Part shown: positions 5,643 through 41,454 of the stretch, one piece after another | Position numbering within the stretch: position 1 is the first letter of the stretch | Layout: each line of letters begins with the position of its first letter | Source: Escherichia coli | GTDB taxonomy: Bacteria > Pseudomonadota > Gammaproteobacteria > Enterobacterales > Enterobacteriaceae | NCBI RefSeq assembly: GCF_003018255.1 | Contig: NZ_CP027440.1 | DNA: 64,000 nucleotides | Reading direction: 5' to 3' (one strand) | Made by a program: the position numbers and the translations under genes | The notes under the pieces: generated by a model | Databases searched by the model: none | What the model was told of the DNA's origin: nothing | Seen by the model: the letters and a program-made list of their open reading frames with translations, nothing else

Positions 5643-6614
5643 CCCTGCCAGCGGCGTTCGCGTAATGCGCTCCTCGCCGTTAATGACTTTTGGACCACGG
5701 ACATGAACCGTGTCGCCATCAAAGGCTTCAACGACGGCGTGGTCGGTTAACTCCACATGTTTTTCAATTATCACCGCACCTGTAATACGGCTCTCACCTT
5801 GTATTACAACGTGCTCGTCGAGCAGAATCGGTCCGCCACGTACCACGGCATTTCCGCCAATCAAGACATGATGTTTTAACACACAATTACCTTCCACAAT
5901 GGCATATTCCGCCACCTGCGAACTGTAATGAATCGTCGGAATGGCATCTTCTTCTATGCCAGCTTTCACCTGCGCGTGACCGTAGACTTTAGCACAATCG
6001 CATAGCCAGACGTTGTTCTCTTCATTACCTTCAACGCTGGCAAAATCAAAAACTTCGGCGCGATGTTCAATAAAAGCATACCGGACGACGGCATCGCCAT
6101 AAATTTGTGCCTGGTGAACAATACGCGAGGCGCTAACCCTTGCGCGATCATAAATTTGTAGCAGGAGTTGATGGTCGGGCGTTAAGCCTTGTGCGGCGAC
6201 GATCATAGAATGTTGATCAATTAAGGCGTGACCAAATATTCTACATTGCCCGCAAACTAATGAGTCACGAATGGTGACACTGTCACTTATATATGCACCC
6301 TGACTGATTTCACTATTATCGATCCAGACGTTATCCGTTGCGTAAACCTCTCCCCACAGTACGCTGGTGCCGGTGATGCGCGTATTACCGGAAATCACCG
6401 CTCCGCCGAACGCAATAGCATTCTGGTCGTAAATCCAGCAATTTCCTTCCTGTGCTAACACCGTTTCGCAATCGATCCAGCCGCCAGCGGTTCCTGCTAT
6501 CACATCGTTAAAATCGCTCATGGCGATAATCTGCCGTAATAACACACTTTTTTTAGTGCCATCATCCTGATAACTAAAGGCTCGCTGTTCTTCACTTAGA
6601 CGATATTTGCGCAT
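5634..6614 (-). CDS. ydcK: Hexapeptide-repeat (left-handed beta-helix) protein of unknown function
   Basis: 326-aa ORF; repetitive hexapeptide-like pattern; recognised as YdcK. Confidence 0.8.
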
Positions 6615-32461: not shown

Positions 32462-33753
32462 CCAGGGAAAGATCACGTAACGCTGCTTTTTTGCACTAAA
32501 TAATTCGCATTTTATGTTTAAAAATTGAGATATTCCTCATTACCTGAAGCTGTTTTTTATTGCGTATACATGTTCAAATACTCCTTACATAATTAAGGAG
32601 AACAAAATGGAACTTAAAAAATTGATGGAACATATTTCTGTTATCCCCGATTACAGACAAGCCTGGAAAGTGGAACATAAATTGTCGGATATTCTACTGT
32701 TGACTATTTGTGCCGTTATTTCTGGTGCAGAAGGCTGGGAAGATATAGAGGATTTTGGGGAAACACATCTCGATTTTTTGAAGCAATATGGTGATTTTGA
32801 AAATGGTATTCCTGTTCACGATACCATTGCCAGAGTTGTATCCTGTATCAGTCCTGCAAAATTTCACGAGTGCTTTATTAACTGGATGCGTGACTGCCAT
32901 TCTTCAGATGATAAAGACGTTATTGCAATTGATGGAAAAACGCTCCGGCATTCTTATGACAAGAGTCGCCGCAGGGGAGCGATTCATGTCATTAGTGCGT
33001 TCTCAACAATGCACAGTCTGGTCATCGGACAGATCAGGACGGATGAGAAATCCAATGAGATCACAGCTATCCCAGAACTTCTTAACATGATGGATATTAA
33101 AGGAAAAATCATCACAACTGATGCGATGGGTTGCCAGAAAGATATCGCAGATAAGATACAAAAACAGGGCGGTGATTATTTATTCGCTGTAAAAGGAAAT
33201 CAGGGGCGGCTTAATAAAGCCTTTGAGGAAAATTTCCCACTGAAAGAATTAAATAATCCAGAGCATGACAGTTACGCAATTAGTGAAAAAAGTCACGGCA
33301 GAGAAGAAATCCGTCTTCATATTGTTTGCGATGTCCCTGATGAACTTATTGATTTCATGTTTGAATGGAAAGGTCTGAAGAAATTATGCGTGGCAGTCTC
33401 CTTTCGGTCAATAATAGCAGAACAAAAGAAAGAGCCAGAAATGACGGTCAGATATTATATCAGTTCTGCTGATTTAACCGCAGAGAAGTTCGCCACAGCA
33501 ATCCGAAACCACTGGCACGTGGAGAATAAGCTGCACTGGCGTCTGGACGTGGTAATGAATGAAGACGACTGCAAAATAAGAAGAGGAAATGCAGCAGAAT
33601 TATTTTCAGGGATACGGCACATCGCTATTAATATTTTAACGAATGATAATGTATTCAAGGCAGGGTTAAGACGTAAGATGCGAAAAGCAGCCATGGACAG
33701 AAACTACCTGGCGTCAGTCCTTGCGGGGAGCGGGCTTTCGTAATCTTTCCCTG
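32462..33753 (+). mobile_element. H-repeat element (ISAs1-family insertion sequence), copy 1, about 1292 bp with imperfect terminal inverted repeats cagggaaagatca ... taatctttccctg
   Basis: Near-identical to copy 2 at 39125..40415; ends defined by where the two copies lose similarity to each other; IRs read from sequence. Confidence 0.8.
32607..33743 (+). CDS. H-repeat-associated protein / ISAs1-family transposase (378 aa)
   Basis: 378-aa ORF with AAGGAG site; about 97 percent identical to the ORF at 39269..40405; recognised as YdcC/YhhI-type H-rpt protein. Confidence 0.85.
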
Positions 33754-34359
33754 AACACCGAGGTGCTGAATAACCGCACCACGGATGTGATAAACAACCA
33801 TGCTGAGACCATCGGCAACAATCAGGTGATTGCGGTTACCAACAATCAGATACAGACGGTGGGCGTTAACCAGATAGAGACGGTGGGCAGTAACCAGATC
33901 ATTAAAGTGGGCTCTGTTCAGGTGGAAACGATTGGACTTGTTCGTGCGCTGACCGTGGGCGTGGCGTATCAGACGACGGTAGGTGGCATTATGAACACCT
34001 CGGTGGCCCTGATGCAGTCCTCGCAGATCGGTTTGCATAAATCGTTGATGGTCGGGCTGGGTTATGACGTCAAAGTCGGAAATAACGTTACCTTCACCGT
34101 TGGTAAAACGAAAAAGGATGATACCGGACAGACCGCGATTTACTCCGCCGGTGAGCATCTGGAACTCTGCTGTGGTAAGGCAAGGCTGGTGCTGACTAAG
34201 GACGGACAAATTTTTCTCAACGGCACAAAAATTCATTTGCAGGGTAAGGAGCAGGTTAATGGTGACTCACTGTTGATTAACTGGAACTGTGCAGCCTCGA
34301 AATCCCCACCGAAGACCCCTGATGAAAAGCAGGATACGCCGGATATGAGAGAGTACTGA
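33754..34359 (+). pseudogene. VgrG (T6SS spike protein) C-terminal fragment, 5'-truncated at the H-repeat boundary
   Basis: Reading frame open from the H-rpt right end; product carries VgrG C-terminal repeat motifs (VINNHAETIGNNQVIAVTNNQIQTVGVNQIETVGSNQ...). Confidence 0.7.
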
Positions 34360-34425: not shown

Positions 34426-37400
34426 ATGAGCGGAAAACCAGCGGCGCGTCAGGGAGATATGACTCAGTATGGCGGTCCCATTGTCCAGGGTTCGGCAGGT
34501 GTAAGAATTGGCGCGCCCACCGGCGTGGCGTGCTCGGTGTGTCCGGGCGGGATGACTTCGGGCAACCCGGTAAATCCGCTGCTGGGGGCGAAGGTGCTGC
34601 CCGGCGAGACGGACCTTGCGCTGCCCGGCCCGCTGCCGTTCATTCTCTCCCGCACCTACAGCAGCTACCGGACGAAGACGCCTGCGCCGGTGGGGATTTT
34701 TGGCCCCGGCTGGAAAGCGCCTTCTGATATCCGCTTACAGATACGCGATGATGCACTGGTACTCAACGACAACGGCGGACGGAGCATTCACTTTGAGCCG
34801 CTGCTGCCGGGTGAGGCGGTGTACAGCCGCAGCGAGTCAATGTGGCTGGTGCGCGGTGGTAAGGCAGCGCAGCCGGACGGCCACACGCTGGGGCGGCTGT
34901 GGGGGGCGCTGCCGCCGGATATCCGGTTAAGCCCGCATCTTTACCTGGCGACCAGCAGCGCACAGGGACCGTGGTGGATACTGGGGTGGTCAGAGCGGGT
35001 GCCGGGTGCTGAGGACGTACTGCCAGCGCCGCTGCCGCCGTACCGGGTGCTGACGGGGCTGGCGGACCGCTTCGGGCGGACGCTGACGTACCGGCGTGAG
35101 GCCGCCGGCGACCTGGCCGGGGAAATCACCGGCGTGACGGACGGTGCCGGGCGTGAGTTCCGTCTGGTGCTGACCACGCAGGCGCAGCGTGCGGAAGAGG
35201 CCCGCACCTCTTCGCTATCTTCTTCTGACCGTCCCCGCCCTCTCTCAGTCTCAGCGTTCCCCGACACACTGCCCGGTACCGAATACGGCCCCGACAGGGG
35301 TATCCGCCTTTCGGCGGTGTGGCTGATGCACGACCCGGCATACCCGGAGAGCCTGCCCGGTGCGCCACTGGTGCGGTACACGTATACGGAAGCCGGTGAA
35401 CTGCTGGCGGTATATGACCGCAGCAATACGCAGGTGCGCGCTTTCACGTATGACGCGCAGCACCCGGGCCGGATGGTGGCGCACCGTTACGCGGGAAGGC
35501 CGGAGATGCGCTACCGCTACGACGATGCGGGGCGGGTGGTGGAGCAGCTGAACCCGGCAGGCCTGAGTTACCGCTACCAGTATGAGCAGGACCGCATCAC
35601 CGTCACCGACAGCCTGAACCGGCGTGAGGTGCTGCATACAGAAGGCGGGGCCGGGCTGAAGCGGGTGGTGAAAAAAGAACTGGCGGACGGCAGCGTCACG
35701 CACAGCGGGTATGACGCGGCAGGAAGGCTCACGGCACAGACGGACGCGGCGGGACGGCGGACAGAGTACGGCCTGAATGTGGTGTCCGGCGATATCACGG
35801 ATATCACCACGCCGGACGGGCGGGAGACGAAATTTTACTATAACGACGGGAACCAGTTAACGGCGGTGGTGTACCCGGACGGGCTGGAGAGCAGCCGGGC
35901 ATATGATGAGCTGGACAGACTGGTATCGGAGACATCGCGCAGCGGGGAGACAGTACGCTACCGCTACGATGACGTGCACAGTGAGTTACCGGCGACGACA
36001 ACGGATGCGACGGGCAGCACCCGGCAGATGACCTGGAGCCGCTACGGGCAGTTGCTGGCCTTCACCGACTGCTCGGGCTACCAGACCCGCTATGAATACG
36101 ACCGCTTCGGCCAGATGACGGCGGTTCACCGCGAGGAAGGTATCAGCCTTTACCGCCACTATGACAACCGTGGCCGGTTAACCTCGGTGAAAGACGCACA
36201 GGGCCGTGAAACGCAGTATGAGTACAACGCCGCAGGCGACCTGACTGCCGTTATCACCCCGGACGGCAACCGGAGCGAGACACAGTACGATGCGTGGGGA
36301 AAGGCGGTCAGCACCACGCAGGGCGGGCTGACGCGCAGTATGGAGTACGATGCTGCCGGACGTGTCATCAGCCTGACCAACGAGAACGGCAGTCACAGCG
36401 ACTTCAGCTACGATGCGCTGGACCGCCTGGTACAGCAGGGCGGCTTTGACGGGCGGACGCAACGTTATCATTATGACCTGACCGGAAAACTCACGCAGAG
36501 TGAAGATGAGGGGCTTGTCATCCTCTGGTACTACGATGAATCGGACCGTATCACTCACCGCACGGTGAACGGCGAACCGGCAGAGCAGTGGCAGTATGAT
36601 GGCCACGGCTGGCTGAGAGAAATCAGCCACCTGAGCGAAGGCCACCGTGTTGCCGTCCACTATGGCTACGACGATAAGGGCCGTCTGACCGGGGAGCGCC
36701 AGACGGTGGAGAACCCGGAGACGGGGGAACTGCTGTGGCAGCATGAGACGAAACAGGCATACAACGAACAGGGGCTGGCAAACCGCGTCACGCCGGACAG
36801 CCTGCCGCCGGTGGAGTGGCTGGCCTATGGCAGCGGTTATCTGGCGGGCATGAAGCTGGGCGGGACGCCGCTGCTGGAGTACATGCGGGACAGACTGCAC
36901 CGGGAGACGGTGCGCAGCTTCGGCAGCATGGCAGGCAATACAGCCGCATATGAACTGACCAGCACTTACACCCCCGCAGGCCAGTTACAGAGCCGGCACC
37001 TGAACAGCCTGGTGTTTGATTGTGACTATAACTGGAATGACAACGGCGACCTGATGCGCATCAGCGGCCCGCGACAGACGCGGGAATACGGCTACAGCGC
37101 CACGGGCAGGCTGGAGAGCGTGCGCACCCTCGCACCGGACCTGGACATCCGCATCCCGTATGCCACCGACCCGGCGGGCAACCGGCTGCCGGACCCGGAG
37201 CTGCACCCGGACAGTACACTCACAGTGTGGCCGGATAACCGAATCACCGAAGACGCGCACTACCTGTACCGTTACGATGAATACGGCAGGCTGGCGGAGA
37301 AGACGGACCGCATCCCGGCGGGTGTGATACGGACGGACGACGAGCGGACCCACCACTACCACTACGACAGCCAGCACCGCCTGGTGTTCTATACGCGGAT

Positions 37401-38586
37401 ACAGCATGGCGAGCCACTGGTCGAGAGCCGCTACCTTTACGACCCGCTGGGCCGCCGGACGGGTAAACGGGTATGGCGGCGGGAGCGTGACCTGACGGGG
37501 TGGATGTCGCTGTCGCGTAAACCGGAGGTGACGTGGTACGGCTGGGACGGCGACCACCTGACGACGGTGCAGACCGACACCACGCGTATCCAGACGGTAT
37601 ATCAGCCGGGGAGCTTCGCGCCGCTCATCCGCATCGAAACAGACAACGGTGAGCGGGAGAAAGCGCAGCGCCGCAGCCTGGCGGAGAAGCTGCAGCAGGA
37701 AGGGAGCGAGGACGGGCACGGCGTGGTATTTCCGGCTGAACTGGTGCGGCTGCTGGACAGACTGGAGGAAGAAATCCGGGCAGACCGCGTGAGCAGTGAA
37801 AGCCGGGCGTGGCTTGCGCAGTGCGGGCTGACGGTGGAGCAACTGGAAAAACAGGTGGAGCCGGAATACACACCGGCGCGAAAAGTTCATCTTTACCACT
37901 GCGACCACCGGGGACTGCCGCTGGCGCTTATCAGCGAAGACGGCAATACGGTGTGGAGCGCGGAGTATGATGAATGGGGAAACCTGCTTAATGAGGAGAA
38001 CCCGCATCATGTGTATCAGTCATACCGTCTGCCGGGGCAGCAGCATGATGAGGAGTCGGGGCTGTACTACAACCGGAACCGGTACTACGATCCGTTGCAG
38101 GGGCGGTATATCATCCAGGACCCGATAGGGCTGGCGGGGGGAATAAACCCGTACAGTTATGTTATGAACAATCCTGTGCAATGGATTGATCCATTGGGAT
38201 TAGCTCATACTTCAGGAAAATGGAAGGACTGTGGTAAAGGTTGTCGAATCCGAATAGATGGCGATGCTGTTGGTGACGGAAGACATTTGCATTGGGAGTG
38301 TAAAAATGGGAGTGGTGTAATGGGGGAATTTGGAGGTATGTCCCATGGTGAGGATTACTCATCAGCACCAAATAGCATTAAGAAATGTGCAAAAAAATAT
38401 GGTTTCGAGCCAGAACCAAGTAAAGATCTGTCATGCAAAACCTCCGGGCTATCAACTACTGATGCGGCTCTTGCAACTGGTGCTACAATTGGCGCAGGGT
38501 ATGTTATATATAGAGTGATTCGATTTATACCTTCACTTGCACCACCTCTTTGGTGGTCAATACCTGCAAACGTTGTTACTCCATGA
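34426..38586 (+). CDS. rhsE: Rhs-family polymorphic toxin with N-terminal PAAR motif, YD-repeat core and divergent C-terminal domain (1386 aa)
   Basis: Literal PAAR at residues 5-8 ([11 protein letters not shown]); numerous YD repeats; conserved core end DPIGLAGG...DPLGL at 38119-38202; sharp GC-rich to AT-rich switch after about 38160. Confidence 0.9.
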
Positions 38587-38612
38587 TTAAAACGGATAAT
38601 GGAGATTATATA

Positions 38613-38957
38613 ATGAGCGATTTTGACATTGTGAGTTCAATTGACTGGCATGATGGGGTTTTGTTAGAAGTAAAAACGACATTCAAAGAATCTCATTTTA
38701 ACATGACGTTATTTATTGACATTTATAAAAATGAGAACATTAGGGAAAAAATGATAGTTGAATTTTCTGATGTAGATGATTTAGTGTTCGCTATGGATTC
38801 TGCTGAGTTAATCGATAATCACAAGTCAGGTAATATAAGTAATGGGTATGTAAAGAAATTAAAAAACAAAAGGATATATAAATTTTTTCTTTATTTTTCT
38901 GATGGCTTATTAAGCATGACATTTAAAAATTTACAATTAATAAAACCATTAGAGTAA
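38613..38957 (+). CDS. Putative Rhs immunity protein (small AT-rich ORF downstream of the Rhs C-terminal domain)
   Basis: ORF 38550..38957; ATG 38613 preceded by GGAG at 8-nt spacing (114 aa); alternative ATG 38583 overlaps the rhsE stop as ATGA (124 aa); position and AT-richness typical of Rhs immunity genes. Confidence 0.55.
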   Translation: MSDFDIVSSIDWHDGVLLEVKTTFKESHFNMTLFIDIYKNENIREKMIVEFSDVDDLVFAMDSAELIDNHKSGNISNGYVKKLKNKRIYKFFLYFSDGLLSMTFKNLQLIKPLE

Positions 38958-39124
38958 CCAAATAAAAGGACTGGAGGAATCAGGGGAAGATCATTAAAGT
39001 TGTGATTATCATCACAACTTTAATCTTGGTTTCACCTTGTTGATTTGATTAAAATTTAATCGCCAAATAATTAAATATATTAGAAAAGGACGTCTGGTGA
39101 ACATTCAAAGTCTTCTTGAGCATA

Positions 39125-40415
39125 CAGGGAAAGATCATCAGAAGTACACTTTTTGTACTAAATAATTCGCATTTTATGTTTAAAAATTGAGATATTCCTC
39201 ATTACCTAAAGCTGTTTTTTATTGCTTATACATGATCAAATACTCCTTACATAATTAAGGAGAACAAAATGGAACTTAAAAAATTGATGGGACATATTTC
39301 TATTATCCCCGATTACAGACAAACCTGGAAAGTGGAACATAAATTGTCAGATATTCTACTGTTGATTATTAGTGCCGTTATTTCTGGTGCAGAAGGCTGG
39401 GAAGATATAGAGGATTTTGGGGAAACACATCTCGATTTTTTAAAGCAATATGGTGATTTTAAAAATGGTATTCCTGTTCACGATACCATTGCCAGAGTTG
39501 TATCCTGTATCAGTCCTGCAAAATTTCACGAGTGCTTTATTAACTGGATGCGTGACTGCCATTCTTCAGATGATAAAGACGTCATTGCAATTGATGGAAA
39601 AACGCTCCGGCATTCTTATGACAAGAGTCGTCGCAGGGGAGCGATTCATGTCATTAGTGCATTCTCAACAATGCACAGTCTGGTCATCGGACAGATCAGG
39701 ACGGATGAGAAATCTAATGAGATTACAGCTATCCCTGAACTTCTTAACATGCTGGACATTAAAGGAAAAATTATCACAACTGATGCGATGGGTTGCCAGA
39801 AAGATATTGCAGAGAAGATACAAAAACAGGGAGGTGATTATTTATTCTCTGTAAAAGGAAACCCGGGGCGGCTGAATAAAGCTTTTGAGGAAAAATTTCC
39901 ACTGAAAGAATTAAATAATCCAGAGCATGACAGTTACGCAATTAGTGAAAAGAGTCACGGCAGAGAAGAAATCCGTCTTCACATTGTTTGCGATGTCCCT
40001 GATGAACTTATTGATTTCACGTTTGAATGGAAAGGTCTGAAGAAATTATGCGTGGCAGTCTCCTTTCGGTCAATAATAGCAGAACAAAAGAAAGAGCCAG
40101 AAATGACGGTCAGATATTATATCAGTTCTGCTGATTTAACCGCAGAGATGTTCGCCACAGCAATCCGAAACCACTGGCACGTGGAGAATAAGCTGCACTG
40201 GCGTCTGGACGTGGTAATGAATGAAGACGACTGCAAAATAAGAAGAGGAAACGCCGCAGAATTATTTTCAGGGATACGGCACATCGCTATTAATATTTTA
40301 ACGAATGATAAGGTATTCAAGGCAGGGTTAAGACGTAAGATGCGAAAAGCAGCCATGGACAAAAACTATCTGGCGTCAGTCCTTGCGGGGAGCGGGCTTT
40401 CGTAATCTTTCCCTG
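39125..40415 (+). mobile_element. H-repeat element (ISAs1-family insertion sequence), copy 2, about 1291 bp, same orientation as copy 1
   Basis: Near-identical to 32462..33753 including terminal inverted repeats. Confidence 0.8.
39269..40405 (+). CDS. H-repeat-associated protein / ISAs1-family transposase (378 aa)
   Basis: 378-aa ORF with AAGGAG site; paralogue of 32607..33743. Confidence 0.85.
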
Positions 40416-40986: not shown

Positions 40987-41454
40987 ATGATTATACGACC
41001 AGTCAAACCTTCAGATGTTGAACCATTACTGGATATGCTGCTTGCCAGTGGACAATTTAATCAAGATGGCCTTCATCATGTACAAAAAACACTAACACAT
41101 TATTTCTCAGGTCAATCTGCCGATTTATGGTTTAGTGCAGAACACTTAGGACTGGCAGGGATTGCCTATTGCGCTCCTGAAGTGATGACAAATGATGTCT
41201 GGAATTTATTAATGCACTGGATCAGTCCTTCCCATCAGCGCCAGGGAGTGGGACATCTGCTGATTAACGAAATAGAAAAGGAGCTCACAATTAAACAGGC
41301 AAGACTACTTTTAGTAGAGACCTCCAGCTATGTCGATTTTAGTGCCGCCCGCGCATTTTATACATAACAGGGCTTTATCAATGAAGCTATAATACGCAAT
41401 TACTATGATGTTGGTGAGGATAAATTAATCTTCACTAAAAATATGCAATCGTGA
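40987..41454 (+). pseudogene. GNAT-family N-acetyltransferase interrupted by an in-frame TAA at 41365-41367
   Basis: ORF 40987..41367 (126 aa) continues in the same frame for 28 more codons to TGA 41452-41454; sequence around the stop reads AFYT*QGF versus the GNAT consensus FY.K.GF. Confidence 0.6.

Follow-up and report, generated by a model that had tools for sequence, protein, structure and literature searches.

Against which part of an Rhs effector would the small gene directly behind it protect? The question is raised by a window of 64,000 nucleotides from Escherichia coli (NCBI RefSeq assembly GCF_003018255.1, contig NZ_CP027440.1), which is the whole stretch of DNA analysed here and contains the rhsE locus in the order yncG, yncH, ISAs1, vgrG remnant, rhsE, a small open reading frame (ORF), ISAs1 (ydcC), yddH and nhoA. 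The original prediction, made from the sequence alone, had proposed the small ORF as a candidate cognate immunity gene in a position typical for Rhs elements. This proposal is supported by three independent lines of evidence, namely the linkage of the gene family to one and the same toxin domain, a predicted fold related to that of the immunity protein PIM7, and a pattern in the E. coli population in which the gene is intact beside the full-length toxin. We thus consider it likely that the ORF at 38613–38957 encodes a soluble, mildly acidic, cytoplasmic immunity protein of 114 amino acids, with its own ribosome-binding site and a PIM7-like fold, that is cognate to the C-terminal toxin of RhsE through a Cys/His-rich domain. 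The features concerned are the following.

34426–38586, plus strand: RhsE-type effector of the type VI secretion system (T6SS), 1386 amino acids, core ending with DPLGL at residue 1255; Pfam DUF6531, RHS_repeat and RHS.
38203–38418, plus strand: Cys/His-rich domain, Rhs residues 1260–1331, about 72 amino acids; …GKGCRIRID…RHLHWECK…GEFG.SHG…AP..IKKCA..GF.
38464–38583, plus strand: hydrophobic Tox-WTIP tail, Rhs residues 1347–1386, with RVIR (RxxR) and WWSIP (Wx[ST]IP); Pfam PF15654.
38613–38957, plus strand: putative immunity gene, 114 codons plus TAA (38955–38957), called from the PGAP start, the pN/pS ratio (see below), the family and the predicted fold.

The Rhs core is closed by the PxxxxDPxGL motif at residue 1255, and near-identical genomes label the rhsE product 'RHS element core protein'. 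The GC content is 64% in the core and 27% in the small ORF, as its earlier description as AT-rich implied. Judged from its sequence, the region beyond the core (38203–38583, residues 1260–1386) is bipartite and consists of the Cys/His domain followed by a swappable tail. In the window protein the tail matches Tox-WTIP (PF15654; E = 1.5e-13, 51 bits against a cutoff of 25), a match confined to positions 39–79 of the 79 in the profile and to the last 40 Rhs residues, and its maximum hydropathy is 1.3; in relatives it is replaced by other transmembrane segments or by proline-rich stretches. Zhang et al. (2012, PMC3482391) listed Tox-WTIP among the predicted pore-forming toxins, giving it two membrane helices together with the motifs RxxR and Wx[ST]IP, but no immunity family. 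That study and the PT7 preprint discussed below were all that the literature yielded on Tox-WTIP (PF15654) or on the WP accessions and PDB codes concerned, and a tblastn search of the WTIP tail against plasmids gave no match. The Cys/His domain has no sequence match in Pfam, NCBIfam or the PDB. An alignment of 14 lineages shows invariant residues along its length: H8, C20, I-R-I-D25, R-H-L-H-W-E-C-K (33–40), G-E48, S-H54 and C68-A69.

Which of the two parts the small gene belongs to can be read from its relatives. In every toxin-linked locus found, whether a full-length Rhs, a VgrG-Rhs fusion or an orphan module, a member of the immunity family lies directly downstream and in the same orientation. 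Protein P0031 (locus L012) carries the same Cys/His domain with a glycine-rich hydrophobic tail, and the next gene is homologous to the window ORF (E = 7e-23); protein P0041 (locus L010) carries a WTIP tail on an unrelated N-terminal part, and its next gene is unrelated to the window ORF. When metagenomes were scanned with a Cys/His-domain profile, 39 loci were recovered. In all nine diverged metagenomic loci with downstream sequence (toxin identity 48–57%), the next ORF belongs to the immunity family (E = 9e-14 to 3e-29), and the nine toxins end in Tox-WTIP (one), other hydrophobic tails (five) or proline-rich tails (three). The same pairing occurs in full-length VgrG-Rhs fusions within T6SS clusters (L020 and L025). 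Since the family goes with the Cys/His domain irrespective of the tail, it would be cognate to this domain and not to the WTIP tail, a pairing that also fits a soluble cytoplasmic immunity protein. We therefore propose that the Cys/His domain is the toxin domain proper and the target of the immunity protein. The original prediction had missed that the partner is this unannotated domain ahead of Tox-WTIP and not Tox-WTIP itself. On the metagenomic contigs L004 and L012 the homologues are arrayed with other small genes, among them Imm58, Imm-NTF2-2 and TseH-like fragments, as is typical of orphan toxin-immunity islands.

The best Pfam match of the small protein was DUF6981 (E = 0.013; 15.9 bits, below the cutoff of 26) and nothing exceeded the thresholds of NCBIfam or PADLOC; the DUF6981, SAUGI and SASP hits from these scans were rejected as noise below threshold. 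Nor did the ORF profile or the toxin profiles find anything meaningful among the PDB sequences, where the matches to dodecin and ASH1L were attributed to chance. A profile search against immunity families, suggested earlier as a check, gave no match, as none of 56 family members matches any Pfam family, immunity families included. The earlier statement that no family could be assigned is thus right for the curated libraries (Pfam, NCBIfam and PADLOC). Beyond them, a coherent unnamed family exists: when 1.84 billion cluster representatives, clustered at 50% identity, were searched exhaustively with HMMER, this identified 66 relatives with E ≤ 1e-3, nearly all of 105–125 amino acids and aligning from the first few residues. 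A word-indexed search recovered 21 close relatives only, and a profile search of genome contigs with a reduced alignment recovered 4 loci. In the alignment of 56 sequences, H13, D14, G73 and G98 never vary, and W12, R44, L66 and N69 hardly do; G15 is invariant among close relatives only, and the motif reads [WL]HD[GA] in further ones. Several distant members (28–44% identity; L017, 5001–5345; L028, 5001–5363; L015 and L016, about 6001–6330) are standalone, with no toxin gene nearby; their neighbours are an acetyltransferase and luxCE, a solute-binding protein transporter and, in Acidovorax and Rhodoferax, housekeeping genes. The simplest explanation for these members is that they are orphan immunity genes.

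The same 56 sequences allowed a confident structure prediction by AlphaFold, with a predicted local distance difference test score (pLDDT) of 93.6 and a predicted template modelling score of 0.85; a model computed from 13 close sequences (pLDDT 49) was discarded. The retained model comprises an N-terminal helix (residues 3–9), eight strands (strand A, residues 16–25) and a short helix (63–68). In a Foldseek search, two PIM7 chains of PDB entry 8owu were the only matches with a template modelling score above 0.6, and according to the model the protein has a PIM7-like fold, in which helix alpha1 is followed by an antiparallel sheet. Sequence homology to PIM7 was not detected by hhalign of the 56-sequence family alignment (E = 0.095, probability 0.6%) or by the PDB profile search, which missed 8owu. 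PIM7 is the immunity protein of PT7, a metal-dependent DNase with a new fold, and covers the catalytic pocket of the toxin (bioRxiv 10.1101/2021.10.19.465003). Residue D17 of PIM7, at the tip of the loop between alpha1 and betaA, contacts the catalytic residues of PT7 (Nachmias et al., bioRxiv 10.1101/2021.10.19.465003). The invariant H13-D14 pair sits, according to our model, in the loop between helix 3–9 and strand 16–25, encoded as follows.

38646–38657, plus strand: codons of W12-H13-D14-G15, placed by the model and the alignment in the loop that connects helix 1 to strand A.

This loop may be equivalent to the D17 loop of PIM7.

A similar resemblance could exist on the toxin side. With the PT7 sequence taken from the PDB chain, and the Bacillus cereus locus of PT7 and PIM7 also recovered, the segment RMRID37…H47VH of PT7 aligns with CRIRID…RHLHW of the Cys/His domain over a motif of about 20 residues. 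Mutation of D37, H47 or H73 abolishes PT7 toxicity (supplement of bioRxiv 10.1101/2021.10.19.465003), and the counterparts of these residues in the Cys/His domain, D25, H34/H36 and H54, are invariant and occur in the same order. Comparison of the domain with PT7 by hhalign gave E = 0.01 and 0.006 over 19–24 columns. When a hidden Markov model of the PT7 family was used, 15 of 5000 shuffled sequences scored as high as the window toxin and 111–126 of 5000 as high as more diverged toxins, which corresponds to an empirical P of about 0.003–0.025. We regard the match as statistically suggestive; that the toxin is a PT7-like metal-dependent DNase is a possibility to which we give clearly less than even weight. 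In the B. cereus locus (L022, 3001–3607; GCA_002550815.1) the PT7 gene of 8owu is named 'transposase' in both GenBank and the PDB, which looks like a propagated annotation error, and it is followed by the PIM7 gene and then by a gene of the CdiI_ImmP family.

The third line of evidence comes from the distribution of the gene in E. coli. Among 5426 complete genomes, 403 have the ORF, in each case once and on the chromosome. All 42 genomes with at least 99% identity have an uninterrupted match of 375 nt, and in 35 of these the ORF lies beside an annotated full-length 'RHS element core protein'. The remaining carriers (about 360) hold it, judging from sampled annotations, in an orphan module behind another rhsE C-terminus/immunity pair, where it adjoins a toxin remnant that contains an internal stop. 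In a sample of 40 carriers taken evenly, about 24 show a match of 374 nt, which in the one checked reflects a 1-nt deletion in an A-run, and a second frameshift allele, of 99 amino acids, is common in databases (P0015, 295 member sequences). Other enterobacterial contigs (L003–L007) likewise carry orphan modules, whose toxin fragments are frameshifted or truncated. To remain intact beside an intact toxin and to decay beside remnants is what an immunity gene should do, and the E. coli pattern fits the orphan-module model of rhs evolution. At least two frameshift alleles occur in E. coli (L008, 7031–7374, NZ_CP123024; and P0015), both in A-runs, at about 38741–46 and 38861–66, and they were seen solely in strains with the toxin as an orphan remnant.

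The extent of the protein depends on the choice of its start codon, for which the following two features are relevant.

38583–38612, plus strand: upstream ATG and the next 27 nt, most likely a spacer with the ribosome-binding site and not an N-terminal extension.
38601–38604, plus strand: Shine-Dalgarno sequence GGAG, with an 8-nt spacer to the ATG at 38613.

The original prediction had left two possible starts, and both can be read directly in the sequence: an ATG (38583–38585) that overlaps the TGA stop of rhsE (38584–38586) as ATGA, and a second ATG at 38613, 27 nt after the Rhs stop, with GGAG 8 nt upstream. The two are in frame with each other, the longer product having 124 amino acids, and a further ATG, at 38599, lies in another frame. 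Translation, as far as the sequence can tell, starts at 38613, and this settles the question of the two starts; annotation, the Shine-Dalgarno duplex, homologues, the evolution of the extension and the short N-termini of the family agree on it. PGAP annotates 38613 in E. coli genomes, and the RefSeq entry for the product ('hypothetical protein' WP_001279013.1, 114 amino acids, equivalent start) differs from the window protein at a single position, where the window has V80 for I80. The duplex with the anti-Shine-Dalgarno sequence is worth −6.4 kcal/mol for 38613, within the best 7% of ATGs on the plus strand of the window, against +1.2 kcal/mol for 38583. Four toxin-linked homologues with 37–46% identity (L012, L013 from Citrobacter youngae, L020 and L025) have a methionine aligned with 38613 and lack an in-frame upstream ATG, and three of them have an in-frame stop 15–36 nt before that methionine. 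The 30-nt extension evolves as non-coding DNA would. In it, all five codons that differ from L005 are changed nonsynonymously, with proportions of nonsynonymous (pN) and synonymous (pS) differences of 0.29 and 0.10; compared with L007, pN is about equal to pS, unlike in the body of the ORF, where pN is 0.077 and pS 0.434 against L005 (pN/pS about 0.18). Finally, the [WL]HD motif is preceded by 6–14 residues in family members and by 20 in L061, compared with 11 in the short form and 21 in the long one.

A form of 124 amino acids from the ATG at 38583, translationally coupled to rhsE and made alone or beside the shorter form, is in our opinion improbable, although it survives best among the alternatives. 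The ATGA overlap is present and in frame, the in-frame ATG is shared by the close relatives L003, L005, L007 and L009, gene callers selected the long form on many metagenomic contigs, and the extension has 92.6% nucleotide identity to L003. However, the upstream ATG has no Shine-Dalgarno site, and the overlap simply follows from the last codons of the toxin, CCA-TGA (Pro-stop); toxins of relatives that end in CCG-TAA or CCC-TAA show no overlapping ATG. The ATG is absent or out of frame in L012, L013, L020 and L025 and in L004, where ATA replaces it and where, in our own reading, two compensating 1-nt indels improve the alignment of the extension. The internal methionine is shifted by one codon in the L005 group, which retains the Shine-Dalgarno-like GGA. 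Together with the pN and pS values and the short N-termini given above, these observations argue for the 114-residue protein; initiation at 38583 by coupling could still happen occasionally.

If the protein of 114 residues is an immunity protein, the annotation of the Rhs C-terminus would suggest that it acts against the pore-forming activity of the Tox-WTIP tail. Tox-WTIP is the sole annotated toxin domain there, it is classed as pore-forming with an immunity family that is not known (PMC3482391), and the ORF is the sole conserved gene directly downstream. The product argues otherwise. Its isoelectric point is 5.33 (5.15 for the long form) and its maximum Kyte-Doolittle mean over 19 residues is just 0.81, so that it contains no transmembrane segment and no h-region like that of a signal peptide, which bears out its earlier description as an acidic product of 114–124 amino acids with no obvious signal peptide. 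Immunity proteins to membrane-active toxins are usually membrane-bound. Between the small ORF and ISAs1 there is no additional small ORF with a transmembrane segment, and a second, membrane-type immunity gene is therefore absent here. Moreover, homologues follow unrelated transmembrane or proline-rich tails (L012, L057, L059, L060 and L062–L066), the single WTIP-tailed protein that lacks the Cys/His domain has an unrelated neighbour, and the predicted fold matches that of an immunity protein to a soluble nuclease. Immunity to a WTIP pore is for these reasons very unlikely, and the designation of Tox-WTIP as the toxic moiety is probably a mislabelling; anchoring, entry or pore formation are all possible roles of the tail.

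No more plausible is that the small protein is an accessory factor, a chaperone or adaptor that loads or stabilises the toxin, instead of its antidote. Small chaperones are often a requirement of T6SS effectors that contain hydrophobic segments, and genetic linkage alone does not separate a chaperone from an immunity protein. The gene, however, is placed downstream of the toxin, as immunity genes are, it tracks the soluble domain and not the hydrophobic tail, and it persists in orphan modules and as standalone copies without an effector. In addition, the protein has no match to Eag/DUF1795, DUF4123, DUF2169 or any other Pfam family, none of these is found among its top structural matches, and its best structural relative is an immunity protein.

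That the ORF is a real gene is shown by its length and by its evolution: at its composition (stop probability 0.097 per codon) the chance of finding no stop in 135 codons is about 1e-6, and compared with the most diverged close relatives, L005 and L007, its body has a pN of 0.077 and a pS of 0.43–0.52, which indicates clear purifying selection. A spurious frame in AT-rich spacer DNA, for which one could cite the lack of a curated family, the poor first model from 13 close sequences (pLDDT 49) and the frameshifts in many E. coli copies, can practically be dismissed in view of that length, a pN/pS of 0.18, a family that stays alignable down to 24% identity with its invariant residues kept, and the pLDDT of 93.6 reached with the deep alignment.

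Taken together, our results suggest the following scheme for the immunity protein. Translation would initiate at the ATG at 38613 from its own GGAG and not at the ATGA overlap, and the product would fold into one helix and eight strands in a PIM7-like arrangement. It would then neutralise the Cys/His domain (Rhs residues 1260–1331), which lies between the Rhs core and the Tox-WTIP tail, most likely by binding to it in such a way that the [WL]-H-D-[GA] loop occludes the active site. Protection, direct binding, the role of the loop and a PT7-like metal-dependent DNase as the toxin are four points of the scheme that we infer.

Several observations weigh against this assignment. The link between the toxin and PT7 is a motif of about 20 residues with marginal significance, and the Cys/His domain contains four conserved cysteines, three of them invariant, that PT7 lacks. 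The match to PIM7 is at the level of the fold only, without sequence homology, and since one immunity fold can serve against toxins that are not related, a fold match leaves the mechanism unfixed. That immunity does not track WTIP has, on the negative side, a single example (L010). The family members in L014–L017 and L028 have no toxin gene nearby, which fits orphan immunity genes, other roles being possible. Furthermore, vgrG is cut by ISAs1 in this strain, and delivery of the toxin may be lost or may need another VgrG.

Beyond the toxin and its presumed immunity gene, one further element was recognised downstream.

38993–39024, plus strand: inverted repeat with a perfect 14-bp stem and a 4-nt loop, 36 nt past the immunity stop, with no strong T-run.

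This stem-loop is terminator-like and could act as such. In related genomes, whose matches to the compared stretch 38100–39270 came in two pieces, an indel of 34–35 nt falls somewhere within that stretch. No RNA family of Rfam was detected in 38400–39400, and a promoter scan found sites no more numerous than in shuffled sequence; we therefore claim no internal promoter.

The rhsE and immunity genes are flanked by two copies of the ISAs1 (H-repeat) transposase gene in direct orientation, at 32607–33743 and 39269–40405. Their starts are 6662 nt apart, and the first 300 nt that were compared (repeat 32488–32787/39150–39449) are 96% identical. The upstream copy stands in place of the N-terminal part of vgrG, and all that is left of this gene, at 33721–34359, is the gp5 trimerisation domain. 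In the annotation of the near-identical NZ_CP116067 the remnant is a pseudogene without its N-terminus, and NZ_AP022087 has a longer vgrG that is also defective. The cognate spike for the window Rhs is thus broken in this strain. On the other side, between ydcC and yddH, an ORF at 40987–41367 encodes 126 amino acids and is a GNAT acetyltransferase according to the annotation of NZ_CP116067; it is missing from NZ_AP022087 and from K-12, where the interval holds pptA, so that the rhsE locus varies between genomes on its right side.

For the annotation of this locus the outcome is clear: the ORF is a genuine gene with its start at 38613, and immunity is its most likely function. An unnamed family (66 clusters at 50% identity) gains a probable function and a confident predicted fold, and a toxin domain that lacks annotation is indicated in E. 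coli, Salmonella, Citrobacter, Hafnia and environmental Proteobacteria. Since Tox-WTIP is apparently not what the immunity protein neutralises, the experimental dissection of such Rhs C-termini would change. More tentatively, and with more doubt than conviction, we suggest that the Cys/His module and its partner with the [WL]HD loop could form an undescribed toxin-immunity pair, both members being distantly related to PT7 and PIM7, in which the tails would be interchangeable modules for anchoring or entry and Tox-WTIP a mislabelled one. Unless this idea of modular tails holds, the wider impact is modest, this being one more toxin-immunity pair among hundreds.

Compared with known systems, the window gene has the attributes of generic Rhs immunity genes (RhsI). 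Like them, it is small, low in GC and on the same strand, directly after the variable C-terminal domain, and like RhsI modules it travels with this C-terminal domain, also in orphan arrays behind another pair of rhs C-terminus and immunity gene. It differs from curated immunity families (Pfam Imm*, SUKH, NCBIfam) in belonging to none of them. In E. coli K-12, where rhsE is a pseudogene, the same position is occupied by ydcD (yncG-yncH-rhsE-[small gene]-ydcC(ISAs1)-yddH). YdcD has 160 amino acids and goes with a different rhsE C-terminal allele; its candidacy as a homologue was rejected, as BLASTP gave E = 0.059 over 21 residues and the sequences are unrelated. The window Rhs shares with Tox-WTIP (PF15654) the C-terminal half of the profile and both motifs, but the immunity family follows the preceding Cys/His domain instead. 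The closest relation, by predicted structure, is with PIM7 of Bacillus cereus (PDB 8owu), a crystallographically characterised immunity protein to a polymorphic toxin, to which the window protein has 8% identity in the structural alignment. PIM7 has Y-W-D17-A where the window protein would have W-H-D14-G at the corresponding loop, and it serves LXG toxins of the type VII secretion system in Firmicutes, whereas the window protein pairs with a T6SS Rhs effector of Proteobacteria.

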